IMG/VR virus record: IMGVR_UViG_2690316028_000002 | Coordinates: 1-13,281 of that record | DNA length: 13,281 nucleotides | Direction: 5' to 3' (one strand) | Source: a virus | Lineage: Duplodnaviria > Heunggongvirae > Uroviricota > Caudoviricetes | Shown here: positions 1 to 13,053 of the stretch, one piece after another | Numbering within the stretch: the first letter of the stretch is position 1 | Layout: every line of letters begins with the position of its first letter | Notes under the pieces: generated by a model | Database searches by the model: none | The model's input: the letters and a program-made list of their open reading frames with translations, nothing else | What the model was told of the DNA's origin: nothing | Position numbers and translations under genes: made by a program

Positions 1-773
1 GCCACATGGGCAATCTGTTCGGCCGTAACGTTGTGGAACTGCTGAGCCATCGCGATCAGGCCTGATGTAGGGTCAGTAGTGAGCTTGCCGTATGCGGCTG
101 CGACTTTTTCCACCGGCACGCCGGAGGCATCAGTAAATCGCGCCACCGCCTGGCTCATTTCATCAAAGCGCGAACTCGCGCCCACCCCCGCGTTGATAAG
201 CTCTCTCAGGGCTTCGCTGGTCTGATTGAACGTCAGCCCCGCTGCCTGGCCGTTTCGTGCCAGCGCCAACATACGATCGGCAGTCAATCCGGCCGTGTTC
301 CCCGACAGTACCAGCGTTTTGTTGAAGTCAGATAGTGTGGATGAGCCCTGGTACCAGGCATAGAACAGCGCACCCGTTGCGGCGGACAGCGCACCGATGC
401 CGACCATCAACGGTGAGATCGTACCCAGTAAGGCCCGGAATGTTGGTATTATCCCGCCAAAGGAGTCCTTAACCTGACCGCCCTGCTGAAGCAGAATAAG
501 CCATGGGTTCTGCCCGCCCGCTAGCTGCGTAGCTATATCGGTAAACTGCGCCGGAAGCATACGCATTGCTGCGTTATACTGGCCTATTGAAATACCCGCC
601 TTGCGCGCGGCGTTCTCCTGGCGGCTAAAGGACTGCTGGATCCGTAGCGCTTCGTCGTTCGCCGCGCTGCCAGTCTGCTTTAATTCTTTTTTGACGTAGT
701 TAAGCTGCTCGTTAAATTTCGTCGAGTTAACGTCAAGGTTAACGACCAGATCACCCACTGCCGTCTGGGCCAT
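1..773 (-). CDS. H: Tail tape measure protein (lambda gpH-like), N-terminal ~257 codons; 3' end lies beyond the window start
   Basis: ATG at 773..771 (plus 'cat'). Hand translation gives MAQTAVGDLVVNLDVNSTKFNEQLNYVKKELKQTGSAANDEALRIQQSFSRQENAARK..., which parallels the lambda gpH N-terminus as I recall it. Reading frame stays open to position 1. Overlaps the T frame stop (751..753) by 23 nt in a different frame. Confidence 0.88.
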   Translation of the reverse strand, partial: MAQTAVGDLVVNLDVNSTKFNEQLNYVKKELKQTGSAANDEALRIQQSFSRQENAARKAGISIGQYNAAMRMLPAQFTDIATQLAGGQNPWLILLQQGGQVKDSFGGIIPTFRALLGTISPLMVGIGALSAATGALFYAWYQGSSTLSDFNKTLVLSGNTAGLTADRMLALARNGQAAGLTFNQTSEALRELINAGVGASSRFDEMSQAVARFTDASGVPVEKVAAAYGKLTTDPTSGLIAMAQQFHNVTAEQIAHV

Positions 774-1116
774 AGCGCACGCCTCCTGAAATACCTGCAG
801 CCTTCGCCATCAGCGTATCGTCATCCGGATCATCGATGTCGATGGCTTCCGGTGCAGAGGAAAGAATGCTGAAACTGTCCGGGGTTAACTCCGGATCGGC
901 AAAAAACAGGGTTGAGATGGTGTAGAGCAAGCCGGAGAAATGTGCGTCCAGCTGCGCATCATGAAAGTAATTGTCCTGGTAGAAGATTTTCCAGTCGCCG
1001 TACTCCGTAGAGGACATGCCAGCAAGCATGGCACGCCAGTCCGGGCGACCGAACTCACGCGCCAGTTTCATGGCAAATTTCAGCTCACTGGCGAGGACTT
1101 TTCCGCAGTAACGGGT
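751..1116 (-). CDS. T: Tail assembly protein T reading frame (lambda gpT-like); probably made only as a G-T fusion by -1 ribosomal frameshifting
   Basis: Track ORF 751..1071 (MKLAREFGRPDWRAMLAGMSSTEYGDW...) matches the lambda gpT start region. The same frame stays open upstream to 1116 and is closed by TGA at 1117..1119, so it overlaps the 3' end of G in the -1 frame. No Shine-Dalgarno serves the internal ATG at 1071. Confidence 0.8.
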   Translation of the reverse strand, partial: TRYCGKVLASELKFAMKLAREFGRPDWRAMLAGMSSTEYGDWKIFYQDNYFHDAQLDAHFSGLLYTISTLFFADPELTPDSFSILSSAPEAIDIDDPDDDTLMAKAAGISGGVRYGPDGSG

Positions 1117-1502
1117 TCAGCGGGATCATTACGTTCTTCACCGGATGAAGTCGGTTCTTCAATGACAGGCGCAATCATCCCGGACAGGAGTTTCACCTTA
1201 TATTCCGCTTCGGCAACCAGTTCGGTCGGCCATGACTGCATGACCTCATCCTGAATCTTTGCCACTTCCGCCGCCGCATTTTCTCCCTGGGAGCCTTTCA
1301 GTTCGTGGCCGTGCCAGAGTGACATCGCCACGAGGAACGCCCCACTTTTTACGGTGAGGGTGATGGCCGCCTGAAAATCGCCAGCTTCAACTGCCTCCAG
1401 CTGCTTCAGGTATTCGAGGTATTCAATACGCTGAAGCGCCGAAAGCTGGAACAATGTGACGCTGCTGCCGTTGCATTCAAGCAGTTCGCTCTTTAGAAAC
1501 AT
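1080..1502 (-). CDS. G: Tail assembly chaperone (lambda gpG-like)
   Basis: 140-aa ORF, the same length as lambda G. ATG at 1502..1500 is preceded by GGAG. Position between V and T matches lambda synteny. Confidence 0.9.
   Translation of the reverse strand: MFLKSELLECNGSSVTLFQLSALQRIEYLEYLKQLEAVEAGDFQAAITLTVKSGAFLVAMSLWHGHELKGSQGENAAAEVAKIQDEVMQSWPTELVAEAEYKVKLLSGMIAPVIEEPTSSGEERNDPAEPVTAEKSSPVS
1098..1104 (-). promoter_or_regulatory. Candidate -1 programmed ribosomal frameshift heptamer (mRNA 5'-GGAAAAG-3') linking G to T
   Basis: The T frame is open only from 1116 downward and G stops at 1080..1082, so the shift must occur within 1083..1116. The only slippery-looking run there is GCG GAA AAG (zero frame) read as GGA AAA in the -1 frame. 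The lambda site is G GGA AAG, so this heptamer is non-canonical. Confidence 0.5.
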
Positions 1503-1538
1503 AATTACTCCGGGGGAACGGGGCTCGCGCCCCGGTTA

Positions 1539-2276
1539 TCAGGAAACAGTGACTTTGCAGATCGCCACAAAGTTACCGTCATTGCTCATAACGATGATTT
1601 CGACGGTGCCTGCCGCCACGCCGGTGACCGTCAGTGTGTTACCGTTAGCCGTAACTGTGGCTTTGGCCCGGTCAGCTGACGATACGCGGAAGGATTTATC
1701 TGACGCACTGGCCGGAAGAACAGATACAACCAGTTGCACAGTTTTACCGACCGCAACAGCTGCAGTGGATTTATCCAGGCTGATCCCCGTGACAGCAATC
1801 GGCGCGGCACCACTGTCTTCTGCCAGTGATGGTTTGCCGTTGTTGGTGATTTTGGCCGTCCGGGTCATGACCTCTTTGGACGTAATGGTTTTACCGAGGC
1901 TGCTCACCCAGCCCTTAAACACATCGACAACACCATTTGGGTATTTGATTTTATATCCCCTCACGGTGCCCTCATCGAACCAGATCACAAGGTCCTGCTG
2001 ACCGGAATCTCCCGGCATCCACGCGAGCGTCAGGTTGGTTTCACCGGCTGATTTCTGCCCCTGCATGGTTGATGTCCAGTCAGCATTCTCATCATCGATG
2101 TAGGTATCATCCTCAGATTCGGCGGTCAGTTCACCGGGCTGCAGGTCTTTAATCTTTGCCAGACGCAGCCAGTCAACATCTGAAAGCGGGTTGGCATAAG
2201 GGTCACCGGTTCCGGTGTAAACCCATAGGGTGGTACCAGCACCTTTTGTTGGTGCCAGCGGGTTTGGTGTGGCCAT
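1539..2276 (-). CDS. V: Major tail tube protein (lambda gpV-like) with a C-terminal Ig-like domain
   Basis: 245-aa ORF. N-terminus ...[26 protein letters not shown]... and the C-terminal T/V/S-rich segment parallel lambda gpV. ATG at 2276..2274 is preceded by GAGGA. Confidence 0.94.
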
Positions 2277-8447: not shown

Positions 8448-8650
8448 ACGTAAAACCCTGCTGGCCCCCGGCGTCGTGATGTGGTGCCAACCTGAGATTC
8501 AAGGTCAGCAATATATTTTTTGAGATCGCTGACTGAAGTGGCTGTAAATTCCACTCTTCGACCGTCTTTCTGTACCGTCGCCACGCGCTTTCCCATCATC
8601 AGGTCATGTAACGCAGCGCGCGCGGCATCCAGTTCAGTCTGTGTTGCCAT
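8444..8650 (-). CDS. W: Head-tail joining / head completion protein (lambda gpW-like)
   Basis: 68-aa ORF, the same length as lambda gpW; ...[41 protein letters not shown]...[10 protein letters not shown] matches. Start overlaps the A stop. Confidence 0.94.
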
Positions 8651-10572
8651 TATTCATCTCCAGATAATGCCCGCGCGTAATCCGCCAGGGTCTTGTTATT
8701 GTTACGGCTGCCTTCTTCCTCCAGCAGGCTGGCCAGAAGTGAATCAAGATTTAGCTGCCAGCGGGATATGCTTATACGCAGCGCCGCCAGTGCATAAACA
8801 AAGCAATCGAGCGCCTCATTTCGTCGTTTTTTGCTGTCCCAGACGATCTTTTTCTTTCCGTCTACCCATTTTTCCACCTGCTCTTCAGCTGTTAGTTGTT
8901 GGGCCTCTGTTAGATCGTAGATTTCTGGGTTATTCGGGAAATGAACCGCTCCCGCCAGCGGCTCGTCTCTTTGCGCCACCAGCGTGAAACGGTTATAAAT
9001 CTGCTCTTTTGCGGTGTCTGTTCCTACCTCTGTGAGGTAAACACCATTCTTGTTACGCTTGCGTGGCATGTTCGCCACTGGCTTTCCATAAACCGACGCC
9101 CCCTTTATAGGGATCACACGAAACAGACCGTGTTTTTTTGAGCGGTTGTAGACGATGGTGGGATCAATGCCGCCAATATCCCAGCAAGTGCGGGATATAA
9201 CCATTTCGAGACCGTTCTGGCGCTTATACGTCCTGTTGATCGCTTCATCAACTCGAGCGAGAGTCGACTCATCATCATGACGACCCATAATGATAATTTT
9301 GTCGATAAGCCAGCTTTCCTCTCCCGGCCCCCATCCCCAAACACGCATTTCGTAACGGTCAAGCTGGGAGTCAATACCCGCTGTCAGATATGCCACTCGC
9401 TCCGGCACAGACGCTTCAAAGTGCTCTTTTCGTTCCGCTAAAACTTCAGCATCGGGTCGTTCACCTATTTTCGGTTCCCACGTTTCGCCCAGGGTCGTGT
9501 TAACGAAAGTTTTTCGCTTACCCGTATCACCTTTTGTTTTTATCCAGTCCTTGACGATCTGCACCCAGGTTGTGAACGGGCTATATGCGGTCCAGATGTG
9601 GAATGTAACGCTGTCAGGAGGTTCAATTTCGGTACCGGATGAAGAAAACCAGTTAAGGCCGTCTCGTGTCCAGATACCTGTTTCATCACAAATATACCTG
9701 GCCTCCAGAAATTCCAGCTCCTGTTGTTTAATCACACAGGCATTGTGTTCACAGAGGTAGTAAACGCTGGCAGGTTCTCCCGGAGACCATTTGAAGCCAA
9801 ATGGTGTCTCTTTATCACCGAATTTCAGATACTGCTCTTCCCCACAGTGTGGGCATGGAACATGGAACCGAAGAAAATGTTCAGACTCCTTAGCAGCTCT
9901 TTCTATCTGGCACGTACCTTTGACTTTCGGTGTAGATCCGCGAATGGATTTCGGCCATACAGAACCCTCAATACGCTTATCACCCAGAAAGGTGGGAGAA
10001 CCTTCTTTCTCGATGTCATCATCGAAAGCGGCGAGCTCGTCGTAGCCAGCCACATCAACTGATTTTTCACGGTAGTTTTTTGCAGCCTTACCGCCCAGGC
10101 ACCAGAAACCACGACCATTCGAGAAACGCTTCATGCTCAGCGTATTGTCCCGGTGTTTTTTACCGTACCAGGGAGCAAGCGCCAGCAACGTCGGAATATC
10201 ACGAATGGTCGGTTCTACATGAGACTTCATGAAGTTTTCAGCATCACCGTCGGTTGGTAACCATATTAGGGAGTTACGCTGTTTATGTTGGATGAAATAT
10301 GCGTAAACGCCGAGCAACATTTTTGAGTAGCCGACACGAGCCGATTTAACGACATTCACCTCGCGAATATAGTCATTACCCATCGCATTCATAATTGCAC
10401 GCTGAAATGGCAGTGTTTCCCAGCGCCCTTCCTGGTAGGCAGACTCTTTCGGGAGATAATAATTCTCATCTGCCCATTCAACTGCTGTTTGCGGTTGCGG
10501 CCGGTACAGCGAACGTAACCCCGCCCGCGCAGAGTGCTGCAGCCCCTTAACCTGACTGTTCGATATATTCAC
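8650..10572 (-). CDS. A: Terminase large subunit (lambda gpA-like; ATPase/translocase plus cos endonuclease)
   Basis: 640-aa ORF starting MNISNSQV... with high similarity to lambda gpA throughout. The start codon is GTG at 10572..10570, immediately after an in-frame TGA, so no ATG is available. 26-nt overlap with the Nu1 3' end. Confidence 0.97.
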
Positions 10573-11337: not shown

Positions 11338-12066
11338 CTATCGACGGCACTGCTGCCAGATAACACCACCGGGGAAACATTCCATCATGATGGCCGTGCG
11401 GACATAGGAAGCCAGTTCATCCATCGCTTTCTTGTCTGCTGCCATTTGCTTTGTGACATCCAGCGCCGCACATTCAGCAGCGTTTTTCAGCGCGTTTTCG
11501 ATCAACGTTTCAATGTTGGTATCAACACCAGGTTTAACTTTGAACTTATCGGCACTGACGGTTACCTTGTTCTGCGCTGGCTCATCACGCTGGATACCAA
11601 GGCTGATGTTGTAGATATTGGTCACCGGCTGAGGTGTTTCGATTGCCGCTGCGTGGATAGCACCATTTGCGATAGCGGCGTCCTTGATGAATGACACTCC
11701 ATTGCGAATAAGTTCGAAGGAGACGGTGTCACGAATGCGCTGGTCCAGCTCGTCGATTGCCTTTTGTGCAGCAGAGGTATCAATCTCAACGCCAAGCGTC
11801 ATCGAAGCGCAATATTGCTGCTCACCAAAACGCGTATTGACCAGGTGTTCAACGGCAAATTTCTGCCCTTCTGATGTCAGAAAGGTAAAGTGATTTTCTT
11901 TCTGGTATTCAGTTGCTGTGTGTCTGGTTTCAGCAAAACCAAGCTCGCGCAATTCGGCTGTGCCAGATTTGGCTGGCAGATCACCAGACAGCAACGCGCC
12001 ACGGAAAAACAGCGCATACAGAACATCCGTCGCCGCGCCGGACAACGTGATAATTTTATGACCCAT
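11338..12066 (-). CDS. Hypothetical protein, 242 aa, function unknown; cargo gene in late-operon orientation abutting cosQ
   Basis: ATG at 12066..12064 is preceded by AAGGAAA about 8 nt upstream. TAG stop at 11338..11340 lies 29 bp from cosQ. No motif I can recognise (no Walker A, no obvious catalytic signature). Similarity to the lambda right end stops at this gene. Confidence 0.75.
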   Translation of the reverse strand: MGHKIITLSGAATDVLYALFFRGALLSGDLPAKSGTAELRELGFAETRHTATEYQKENHFTFLTSEGQKFAVEHLVNTRFGEQQYCASMTLGVEIDTSAAQKAIDELDQRIRDTVSFELIRNGVSFIKDAAIANGAIHAAAIETPQPVTNIYNISLGIQRDEPAQNKVTVSADKFKVKPGVDTNIETLIENALKNAAECAALDVTKQMAADKKAMDELASYVRTAIMMECFPGGVIWQQCRR

Positions 12067-12085
12067 GATTTATTTCCTTTTAGAC

Positions 12086-12139
12086 GTGAGCCTGTCGCAC
12101 AGCAAAGCCGCCGAAAGTTAACGGTTTGCCCAGGCTCAC
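12086..12139. repeat. Perfect 9-bp inverted repeat (gtgagcctg ... caggctcac) with a 36-bp spacer, in the 5' leader of the 242-aa gene
   Basis: Arms at 12086..12094 and 12131..12139 are exact reverse complements. The spacer contains a GTTAAC palindrome. The repeat lies about 20 nt upstream of the 242-aa gene start codon. Confidence 0.8.
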
Positions 12140-12438
12140 AACTGAAAGACTTTCTACGGTGTGCGCGTGCGATGCGCGTAGAAGACTGATTTATCAACCT
12201 GTCTTTATATCAGGATTCATTACCTGACTATTTGTGGGTAAAGTTCGTAGTGCGCTGATCGTGCAAAATGATTTTAGTTGGGAACAGTTCGCAACTCTGT
12301 CCCATAAAAATCAGCATATTCCCATCTATCCCATATCCAGCGCATTGACCATCGGGATACTGAAGGGAGATTCCATCATCTCTTAGAAAGATCACCATCT
12401 CTTTTGTTTCAATTTGCATATAGCTACCTGGAGGATTT

Positions 12439-13053
12439 ATGAATACAAGGATTTTCATGGACTATTACCATGAGATTGATTTTCCATCTTTATTCGCGAG
12501 AGCAGTGGAAAGCGATGACGATGTGGGTACTACATTGCGCATTCACCTACTTTGTGAGCGCATGGTCGAAGCATGGATATGCGCATGCTGTGACTGCCAA
12601 GATCTCTTTGGAAGAGATAAAAACAAACTTTTAATCGAATGTAATACTAAAATATCCATGGCGGGAAACCTGGGAATCCCCACGGAACTTATGAAATCAC
12701 TTAAAACCATCAACTCAATGCGTAATGACCTTGCACACAATCCATCAATACAAAGCATTGCTGATTCAAGGATCCAGAGCCTGACGGATACTCTGACTGA
12801 ATACTTTAAACAGCATCCAACGGAACCCAGCATGGAAGAATCAAAACTGGGTATTTTTAACGCCGAGAATCAATTAACCGAAGAAGTTTCCTTAGATAGT
12901 GACAGTTCAAAAAACAGACTTAAGTTAATCTTGCTGTTCAGCAAGTTAATGCAGGCGTTAATGCAATTAGTTGCAGCTAATCATAATGGGCGCTGGGATA
13001 ACCAATTTAGCCAATTCGTTTACCATGTGACCATGAACGCAACAAAGAGATAA
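12439..13053 (+). CDS. Putative HEPN-domain protein (R-x4-H motif), 204 aa; AT-rich moron, candidate abortive-infection or exclusion RNase
   Basis: ATG at 12439 with GGAGG 4 nt upstream; TAA stop followed 5 nt later by a perfect hairpin. Orientation is opposite to the late operon and the gene is visibly AT-rich compared with the structural genes. The protein has ...SMRNDLAHN... (R95-x4-H100) and a Cys cluster (C48, C50, C51, C53). HEPN assignment rests on the motif only. Confidence 0.8.
   Translation: MNTRIFMDYYHEIDFPSLFARAVESDDDVGTTLRIHLLCERMVEAWICACCDCQDLFGRDKNKLLIECNTKISMAGNLGIPTELMKSLKTINSMRNDLAHNPSIQSIADSRIQSLTDTLTEYFKQHPTEPSMEESKLGIFNAENQLTEEVSLDSDSSKNRLKLILLFSKLMQALMQLVAANHNGRWDNQFSQFVYHVTMNATKR

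Follow-up and report, generated by a model that had tools for sequence, protein, structure and literature searches.

GGAAAAG, a probable programmed -1 frameshift site at the G/T tail chaperone junction of an N15-like lambdoid prophage from Escherichia coli

In phage lambda, expression of genes G and T reportedly involves a -1 ribosomal frameshift at G_GGA_AAG that yields G and GT, and the work is said to be that of Levin, Hendrix & Casjens in 1993 and of Xu, Hendrix & Duda in 2004 and 2013. For phage N15, the record of genes 14/15 (AF064539) marks positions 10027..10033, which are GGAAAAG, with the misc_feature 'slippery sequence for -1 translational frameshift', and gene 15 is described there as the 'downstream half of translational frameshift product' with its start at the heptamer. 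Phage phi80 (FN582354) has the same slippery-sequence feature on GGAAAAG, together with a joined gpG-T CDS. The site described here lies in a stretch of 13,281 nucleotides of the IMG/VR virus record IMGVR_UViG_2690316028_000002, the whole of which is referred to as the window. It is the site already annotated in N15 and phi80, known rather than new, and the present results leave the current understanding of the G/GT system unchanged.

The nearest phages by G-T DNA identity are HK225 (95.0%), N15 (94.6%) and mEp237 (92.2%), and alignment shows an identical GGAAAAG in all three, at equal position and within an equal 34-nt overlap. The G protein of the window is 94% identical to N15 gp14, and the few substitutions relative to N15 (e.g., TCC in place of the N15 CCC after AAG) amount to nothing of substance. 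Lambda shares with the window the same Pfam families, the V-G-T-H gene order, the -1 geometry, the A-site change of AAG to AAA by tRNA-Lys, and a heptamer at equal codon position, with five codons past AAG before the stop. In contrast, the P-site codon is GGA (Gly) in lambda and GAA (Glu) in the window, where the XXX part of the heptamer is inhomogeneous and a central G·U pair would be required; the G proteins are only ~44% identical, T after the site has 115 residues against ~144 in lambda, and the predicted downstream fold has a z of ~-4 against -1.4.

Two further groups of studies bear on a site of this kind. A_AAG tetramers of IS1/IS3-family elements (Sharma 2014, PMC4066793) likewise present the shift-prone AAG to the single tRNA-Lys of E. 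coli. In that survey, A_AAG was the most efficient, most shift-prone tetramer in E. coli given a downstream pseudoknot, and it is in natural use by IS elements; A_AAG without a stimulator was near background in vivo (0.147% vs 0.112%). The survey covered only X_XXZ_ZZN and Z_ZZN motifs, with G_GAA_AAG falling outside it. The IS1/IS3 tetramers need a strong downstream pseudoknot to exceed background, whereas the stimulator of the window is only predicted; a conserved G at position 1 further sets the window apart from a bare IS tetramer, pointing to some role for the P site and to an imperfect heptamer instead. In a reconstituted E. coli system free of stimulators, AUG GAA AAG gave mainly the 0-frame product and was termed "unfavourable" for slippage (Peng 2019, PMC6924986). 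That G GAA AAG mRNA has the same seven bases and two tRNAs as the window site, yielded mainly 0-frame peptide with wild-type EF-G, and was included as a less slippery counterpart of G GGA AAG, whereas the window holds a natural site in another mRNA context. In the dnaX context, replacing a single P-site A·U with G·U carries a penalty of ~5 kJ/mol (determined at codon position 1, not 2), the A-site move from AAG to AAA gains ~2.9 kJ/mol, and the G1 variant gave 28% frameshifting compared with ~80% for wild type (Bock 2019, PMC6787027).

The late operon in the window is complete and of lambda type (Nu1, A, W, B, C, D, E, FI, FII, Z, U, V, G, T, H), and all genes lie on the minus strand, with G and T flanked by V, for the tail tube, on one side and by H, for the tape measure, on the other. 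The window represents a structural module of N15-like type from a prophage of E. coli. The features relevant to the G/T junction are as follows.

1539..2276, minus strand: gene V, tail tube protein, directly upstream of G (Pfam Phage_TTP_12, E 2.4e-70, plus Big_2)
1080..1502, minus strand: gene G, tail assembly chaperone of 140 aa, from ATG at 1502 to the TGA stop at 1082..1080 (open reading frame and translation)
1117..1119, minus strand: TGA closing the T frame upstream, the 5' limit for a shift, read from the sequence
754..1116, minus strand: T reading frame, 121 open codons in the -1 frame with respect to G, closed by a stop at 753..751
1083..1116, minus strand: 34 nt shared by G and T, comprising the final 11 sense codons of G, inside which a shift must fall
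1098..1104, minus strand: putative shift site G_GAA_AAG, becoming GGA_AAA_G after a -1 slip; P-site GAA (Glu), A-site AAG (Lys)
754..1098, minus strand: T part of the predicted GT, with base 1098 read twice, then 115 codons (VLASELKFAMKLAREFGRPDW...)
1018..1092, minus strand: predicted RNA fold that begins 5 nt past the heptamer, a candidate stimulator
1069..1071, minus strand: in-frame ATG in T, 9 nt past the G stop, the annotated T start in HK225, mEp237 and RefSeq
1..773, minus strand: 5' part of gene H, tape measure protein, from ATG at 773, overlapping the end of T and running off the window (Pfam TMP_2, E 3.9e-72)

Gene G matches Pfam PF06894 Phage_TAC_2 (lambda gpG) with an E-value of 4.4e-53, and the T frame matches PF06223 Phage_tail_T with an E-value of 1.8e-12, both above the curated cut-offs. 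These matches and the V-G-T-H order bear out the earlier note on this DNA, which had seen the classic tail-chaperone G/GT arrangement; its description of T as opening after the TGA at 1117..1119 and overlapping the last 11 codons of G in the -1 frame agrees with the frames and the 34-nt overlap found here. The locus shows the gene position, the gpG and T homology, the overlapping -1 frame, the lack of a conserved T start, and the conserved slip-prone sequence of a lambda-type G/GT system. The segment 1083..1119 quoted in that note is the whole overlap plus the T-frame stop, whereas the heptamer itself occupies only 1098..1104.

Written as G codons, the overlap is CCC GTT ACT GCG GAA AAG TCC TCG CCA GTG AGC TGA. 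Moving each of its 11 codons by -1 leaves two matching bases of three only for GAA and AAG; the others retain fewer, with the exception of CCC, which has no C before it. Because only GAA and AAG can re-pair, GGAAAAG at 1104..1098 is the sole slip candidate in the overlap, as had been claimed beforehand. The heptamer had also been called non-canonical, and by the strict X_XXY_YYZ definition it is, although for the P-site half only: XXX is GGA and fails, while the A-site half passes (A_AAG to AAA). An in-frame A_AAG, a tetramer of the Z_ZZN type, is present at the heptamer; in-frame A_AAG is rare in the genes of the window (18 of 3281 codons), giving an expectation of 0.06 per 11 codons. On the minus strand, GGAAAAG occurs once in the whole window, and as a bare string it is not enriched there (3 copies vs 2.07 expected).

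Homologous junctions were collected from 56 viral-contig loci (IMG/VR, queried with the full-length predicted GT), 10 diverse phages and 62 loci from a species scan, the last using one genome per bacterial species and alignment of the T domain, with two search patterns that limit the forms detectable. Together they comprise 80 distinct junctions, a set in which the first query favors N15-like sequences; the species scan suffers less from such bias. Alignment of these G-T junctions placed the same heptamer at the same position in most of them.

GGAAAAG: 63 of 80 distinct junctions, at the homologous position
GGGAAAG: 5 of 80 (lambda)
GGTAAAG: 4 of 80 (Pantoea)
AAAAAAG: 2 of 80 (Stx phages)
AGAAAAG: 2 of 80 (Morganella)
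GGCAAAA: 2 of 80
GGCAAAG: 1 of 80
GGGAAAA: 1 of 80

The only feature invariant across the family is A_AAR, GGCAAAR being among the forms seen. GGAAAAG is found in 55 of the 56 IMG/VR viral-contig loci, the exception (L036) having GGCAAAG. It is also the commonest form in the species scan, with 32 loci in many enterobacterial genera (Trabulsiella, Citrobacter, Enterobacter, Kluyvera, Pluralibacter, Kosakonia, Sodalis, Klebsiella, Proteus, Providencia and others). In that scan, 19 loci had GGGAAAG, and 16 of them carry the identical lambda string in implausible hosts at ~1x coverage; from the identical overlap strings and the implausible hosts, these 16 are read as probable lambda DNA contamination. 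GGAAAAG is therefore not unusual for the lambda G/T family; it is the commonest heptamer at this site in the scans.

The surroundings of the heptamer are much less constant. Overlap length varies from 13 to 82 nt among relatives as the T-frame stop moves, and the position of the heptamer stays constant. The 0-frame stop lies immediately after AAG in Proteus, Providencia and Morganella, and in Providencia heimbachae the overlap is just 13 nt (TGA ATC ACT GGA AAA GTA G), holding little besides GGAAAAG. With so short an overlap there, and with the stop directly after AAG elsewhere, a shift cannot occur anywhere else. Translation of both frames in diverse members showed conservation of the G frame up to ...EPVTA[EK] and of the -1 frame from [GK][AV]LASEL.F on, while upstream of the heptamer the -1 frame of these members contains stops and no conservation. 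Since the conserved frame switches at the heptamer, the shift is placed there and a sequencing error is excluded.

The genes are identified, the geometry of their frames is established, and the site is shown to be the only one in the overlap and to be strongly conserved; from this we infer the slip itself. Very probably, GGAAAAG is where ribosomes make a programmed -1 shift between the tail chaperone genes G and T of this N15-like lambdoid E. coli prophage. Most ribosomes would reach the G stop and make the 140-aa gpG, and a minority would move one base back at G_GAA_AAG (1104..1098), enter the T frame, and make a GT protein of 250 aa. In the predicted GT, 135 and 115 residues meet at the junction ...PAEPVTAEK|VLASELKFAMKLAREFGRPDW..., and a query with this sequence retrieved relatives spanning its whole length from 56 viral contigs. 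On the lambda analogy, the tape measure protein would be coated by gpG and by the G portion of GT, and the T portion would bring in the tail tube protein.

At the decoding level, tRNA-Lys (mnm5s2UUU) would move from AAG to AAA, a move favored in E. coli, and concurrently tRNA-Glu (mnm5s2UUC) would move from GAA to GGA, keeping pairs 1 and 3 with a central G·U at position 2. A tandem slip with such near-cognate re-pairing at the P site is most likely. The middle-position G:U pair foreseen by the earlier note is what the xUUC anticodon of tRNA-Glu gives on passing from GAA to GGA, with pairs 1 and 3 retained. No member of the GGAAAAG class has AAA in place of AAG, or GAG in place of GAA; these observations and the invariance of A_AAR point to the tRNA-Lys move from AAG to AAA as the core event. 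A G stands immediately before GAA_AAG in 63 of 65 distinct junctions, even though the preceding codon may be GCG, CTG, CCG, GTG or TTG, and the seven upstream codons show every base in third position, with no base there exceeding 57%. That position-1 G is kept despite free third positions upstream argues that the P-site codon also matters; it would retain the G:C36 pair of tRNA-Glu after the shift, with position 2 becoming G·U35. In the AGAAAAG, GGCAAAG and GGTAAAG relatives, however, the P-site tRNA is unable to re-pair well, and these exceptions (AGAAAAG, GGTAAAG and GGCAAAR) indicate that good re-pairing in the P site is not essential, which weakens the tandem-slip part of the model.

Downstream of the heptamer, helix A of the predicted structure joins 1092..1083 to 1027..1018 and encloses a hairpin, built from helices B and C, at 1064..1029. 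A stretch of 105 nt running from the heptamer onward has a minimum free energy of -45.5 kcal/mol and a z of -3.7 to -4.1; when the mRNA of the late operon was scored in 314 windows of this length, a single one came out lower, and it overlaps the present one. The region also codes for a highly conserved peptide, and sequence conservation alone is uninformative there. In 26 aligned relatives, covariation consists of 2 compensatory pairs, and 92.6% of cells are paired vs 91.0% for column shuffles. RNAalifold on 60 diverse junctions returned no consensus structure, and distant members fold differently. The z of the downstream fold ranges from +1.3 to -4.25 across relatives and from +1.0 to -4.25 among distant GGAAAAG members, and no consistent relation between a weaker heptamer and a stronger fold was seen across the relatives. 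A short downstream hairpin (58 nt) was no better than shuffled sequence, with a z of -0.7. By eye, no Shine-Dalgarno-like stimulator lies within ~30 nt upstream of the heptamer in the window; phi80 and Flotzy have GGAGG ~27 nt upstream, too far by the standard of dnaX and IS911. Rfam gave no family match in the window. The downstream fold is thus proposed as a clade-specific candidate stimulator, and would be the best candidate for a helper in the N15/window clade.

Accounts that dispense with a ribosomal frameshift fare poorly against this evidence. A short homopolymer, AAAA, is present in the site, and RNA polymerase slippage on it (one A fewer, or two more) would bring T into frame with no role for the ribosome. 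Transcriptional slippage, a subject reviewed in PMC5009743, is known on runs of ~7-9, and AAAA is far shorter; moreover, the position-7 G, and with it AAG rather than AAA, is strictly kept in the class, which fits decoding by tRNA-Lys and leaves polymerase slippage very improbable. A further proposal, that the prophage is decaying and that its heptamer is a true GGGAAAG altered by an inactivating mutation of recent date or by faulty sequencing, could draw on the single G to A change that separates it from the lambda site and on the RefSeq pseudogene flag on T in one host genome. The earlier note had allowed that an error might hide a true GGGAAAG, and this is excluded by the conservation of GGAAAAG in phages (N15, HK225, mEp237 and phi80), viral contigs and 32 species-level genomes. 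As the remaining late operon is also intact, error or decay is scarcely conceivable, and was rejected as refuted by the conservation data. T might instead be made mainly as a separate protein of 106 aa, by re-initiation at ATG 1071 after the G stop and with no frameshift. The ATG is there, T is annotated from it in HK225, mEp237 and RefSeq PGAP, and short-range termination-reinitiation is possible in bacteria. However, the codon at 1071 is Met only in the N15/HK225/mEp237/window group and is CTG (Leu) in close relatives (L046-L059), lambda and phi80. No Shine-Dalgarno sequence is placed so that it could serve the ATG: as read from the sequence, the closest run rich in purines, GTGAG, ends 12 nt upstream, too far for ribosome binding. 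Conservation of the T frame (GK[AV]LASEL.F) extends upstream of the ATG back to the heptamer and no further, and the heptamer is fixed whereas the G stop shifts 0, 1 or 5 codons past AAG according to lineage. For lambda, T is known only within the gpGT fusion, so far as Levin 1993 is relayed in PMC5009743 and PMC3296357. A T protein made mainly on its own is consequently improbable: ATG 1071 is probably not a functional T start and independent initiation there is unlikely to be the main route to T, although some re-initiation may occur. The earlier statement that T has no usable start was slightly overstated, in that an in-frame ATG is present at 1071..1069; it holds as regards the missing Shine-Dalgarno sequence and the poor conservation of that codon.

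A closer competitor keeps the frameshift and alters the mechanism only, with the same site and the same product. Here tRNA-Lys alone would slip on A_AAG, re-pairing in the P site would be irrelevant, and a stimulator (the predicted downstream fold in this clade, an adjacent stop in others) would supply the efficiency. This single-tRNA slip would account for A_AAR being the sole invariant next to P-site codons as different as GAA, GGA, GCA, GUA and AAA, and for the A at position 1 in Morganella. It is in keeping with the rank of A_AAG among E. coli tetramers with a pseudoknot and its use by IS elements (Sharma 2014, PMC4066793), with a fold beginning 5 nt past the heptamer at a z of ~-4 in the most extreme region of the operon, and with the stop right after the site in every A_AAA variant and in the Morganella AGAAAAG. 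A pure tetramer leaves unexplained, however, the position-1 G in 63 of 65 GAA_AAG junctions with their five preceding codons, and the fold it would lean on has weak covariation (the 2 compensatory pairs) and is not common to distant GGAAAAG members. The single-tRNA slip is therefore a possible mechanism that we do not favor, and the tandem slip with near-cognate P-site re-pairing is retained as the preferred one.

For the tandem slip at GGAAAAG, efficiency is probably a few-fold below that of the lambda GGGAAAG unless a helper is nearby. The mainly 0-frame product in vitro and the near-background level of bare tetramers imply either such a helper or a low requirement for GT. Of the two consequences that the earlier note drew from the P-site G:U, lower efficiency is plausible in light of Peng 2019, and different tRNA usage found no support, there being no tRNA gene in the window. 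In the literature searched, which excludes Xu et al. 2004/2013, no GT product, junction peptide or efficiency was found for GGAAAAG in any phage; the one study of this heptamer in frameshifting that came up was the in vitro work of Peng 2019, and a search on phi80 yielded nothing of use. The heptamer is a conserved natural -1 site on the very sequence used in vitro as a less slippery comparison (PMC6924986), and its rate in vivo would reveal the cost of a central G·U in the P site. With both mnm5s2U tRNAs (Glu and Lys) in play, phages of this class are possibly more sensitive than lambda to thiolation of host tRNA.

A broader generalization can be framed from the junctions, although we consider it somewhat unlikely: GGAAAAG, not GGGAAAG, would be the usual lambda G/T shift site, under a looser rule G_GNA_AAR, with clade-specific local helpers offsetting the lower slipperiness. 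The P-site tRNA would then keep only the first-position G:C and a near-cognate pair, and the helpers would be the fold at 1092..1018 in the N15/window clade and the stop right after AAG in Proteus, Providencia and Morganella. If true, this site would lend itself naturally to asking what degree of P-site mismatch at the second position is accepted in bacterial -1 frameshifting.

A practical consequence concerns annotation. RefSeq and several phage records list T as a separate or incomplete gene from ATG 1071, whereas the evidence favors a 250-aa GT joined at 1098. RefSeq flags T as incomplete, and as a pseudogene in one host genome; this reflects a T shorter than that of lambda, not disruption. 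The G-T region was found in 31 of 5426 complete E. coli genomes, the best match (99.9%) being to strain MSB1_9D.

At the position homologous to the shift site of the window (G_GAA_AAG), two Morganella loci (L121 and L122) carry A_GAA_AAG followed by TAA, and loci from Kluyvera gsp. 1 (L123), Ewingella (L125) and Providencia rustigianii (L126) carry G_GCA_AAA or G_GGA_AAA, followed by TAG. The homologous heptamer is G_GUA_AAG in Pantoea (L128-L131) and G_GCA_AAG in an IMG/VR locus (L036). A 0-frame stop lies immediately 3' of the site in each of the three distinct sequences whose heptamer ends in the weaker motif A_AAA, and the Morganella AGAAAAG site has one as well. Because the stop adjoins every A_AAA site together with that of Morganella, sequence comparison suggests that it is the helper of the shift in these loci. 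An identical lambda G-T sequence was also recovered from genome contigs (L088-L094, L096-L100, L104, L113, L118 and L132) that are short and of roughly 1x coverage, from assemblies of unrelated taxa, among them Neobacillus, Kitasatospora, Chromatium and Leeuwenhoekiella, as well as Enterococcus, Shewanella and Pseudoxanthomonas; these copies are almost certainly lambda DNA contamination.

The part of T that follows the heptamer has 115 residues in the window (754..1098, minus strand), compared with about 144 in lambda, and is without the C-terminal stretch that in lambda holds a second GG[VI]R[YF]G-like motif. In E. coli MSB1_9D, RefSeq flags T as a pseudogene ("incomplete; missing C-terminus"); this flag follows from T of the window being shorter than that of lambda, and looks like an annotation artefact. 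At its 3' end T runs into the tape measure gene H, and upstream of G, a GC-rich hairpin follows V:

751..773, minus strand: T/H overlap, 23 nt in common (H start ATG at 773; T stop 753..751)
1519..1534, minus strand: hairpin CGGGGC-GCGA-GCCCCG, in the V-G gap (V stop 1541..1539; G start 1502)

The 23-nt overlap occurs likewise in N15 and HK225, and with H beginning before T ends, G, GT and H form a tight cluster on a single mRNA. The hairpin is the counterpart of features annotated in HK225 and N15 as "stem_loop" and "putative rho-indep. transcription terminator". Directly 3' of it in the window stands TTCCCCC, not a T run, and it was not among the matches of a terminator scan of the window; it might reduce expression of G, T and H relative to V.

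The ORFs past Nu1, at 11341..13050, received little or no family assignment from Pfam, and this region is probably either the adjacent module of the prophage or its end:

11341..12066, minus strand: ORF, weak Phage_Tail_Tip match
12231..12458, minus strand: ORF, no Pfam match
12439..13050, plus strand: ORF, no Pfam match

Within gene W, a canonical lambda-type heptamer, G_GGA_AAG, lies in frame at 8588..8594 (minus strand), perfectly matching the lambda G-T slippery sequence but in a different gene. A -1 slip there is predicted to replace the last 47 codons with a 27-codon out-of-frame tail, and the heptamer is probably incidental.
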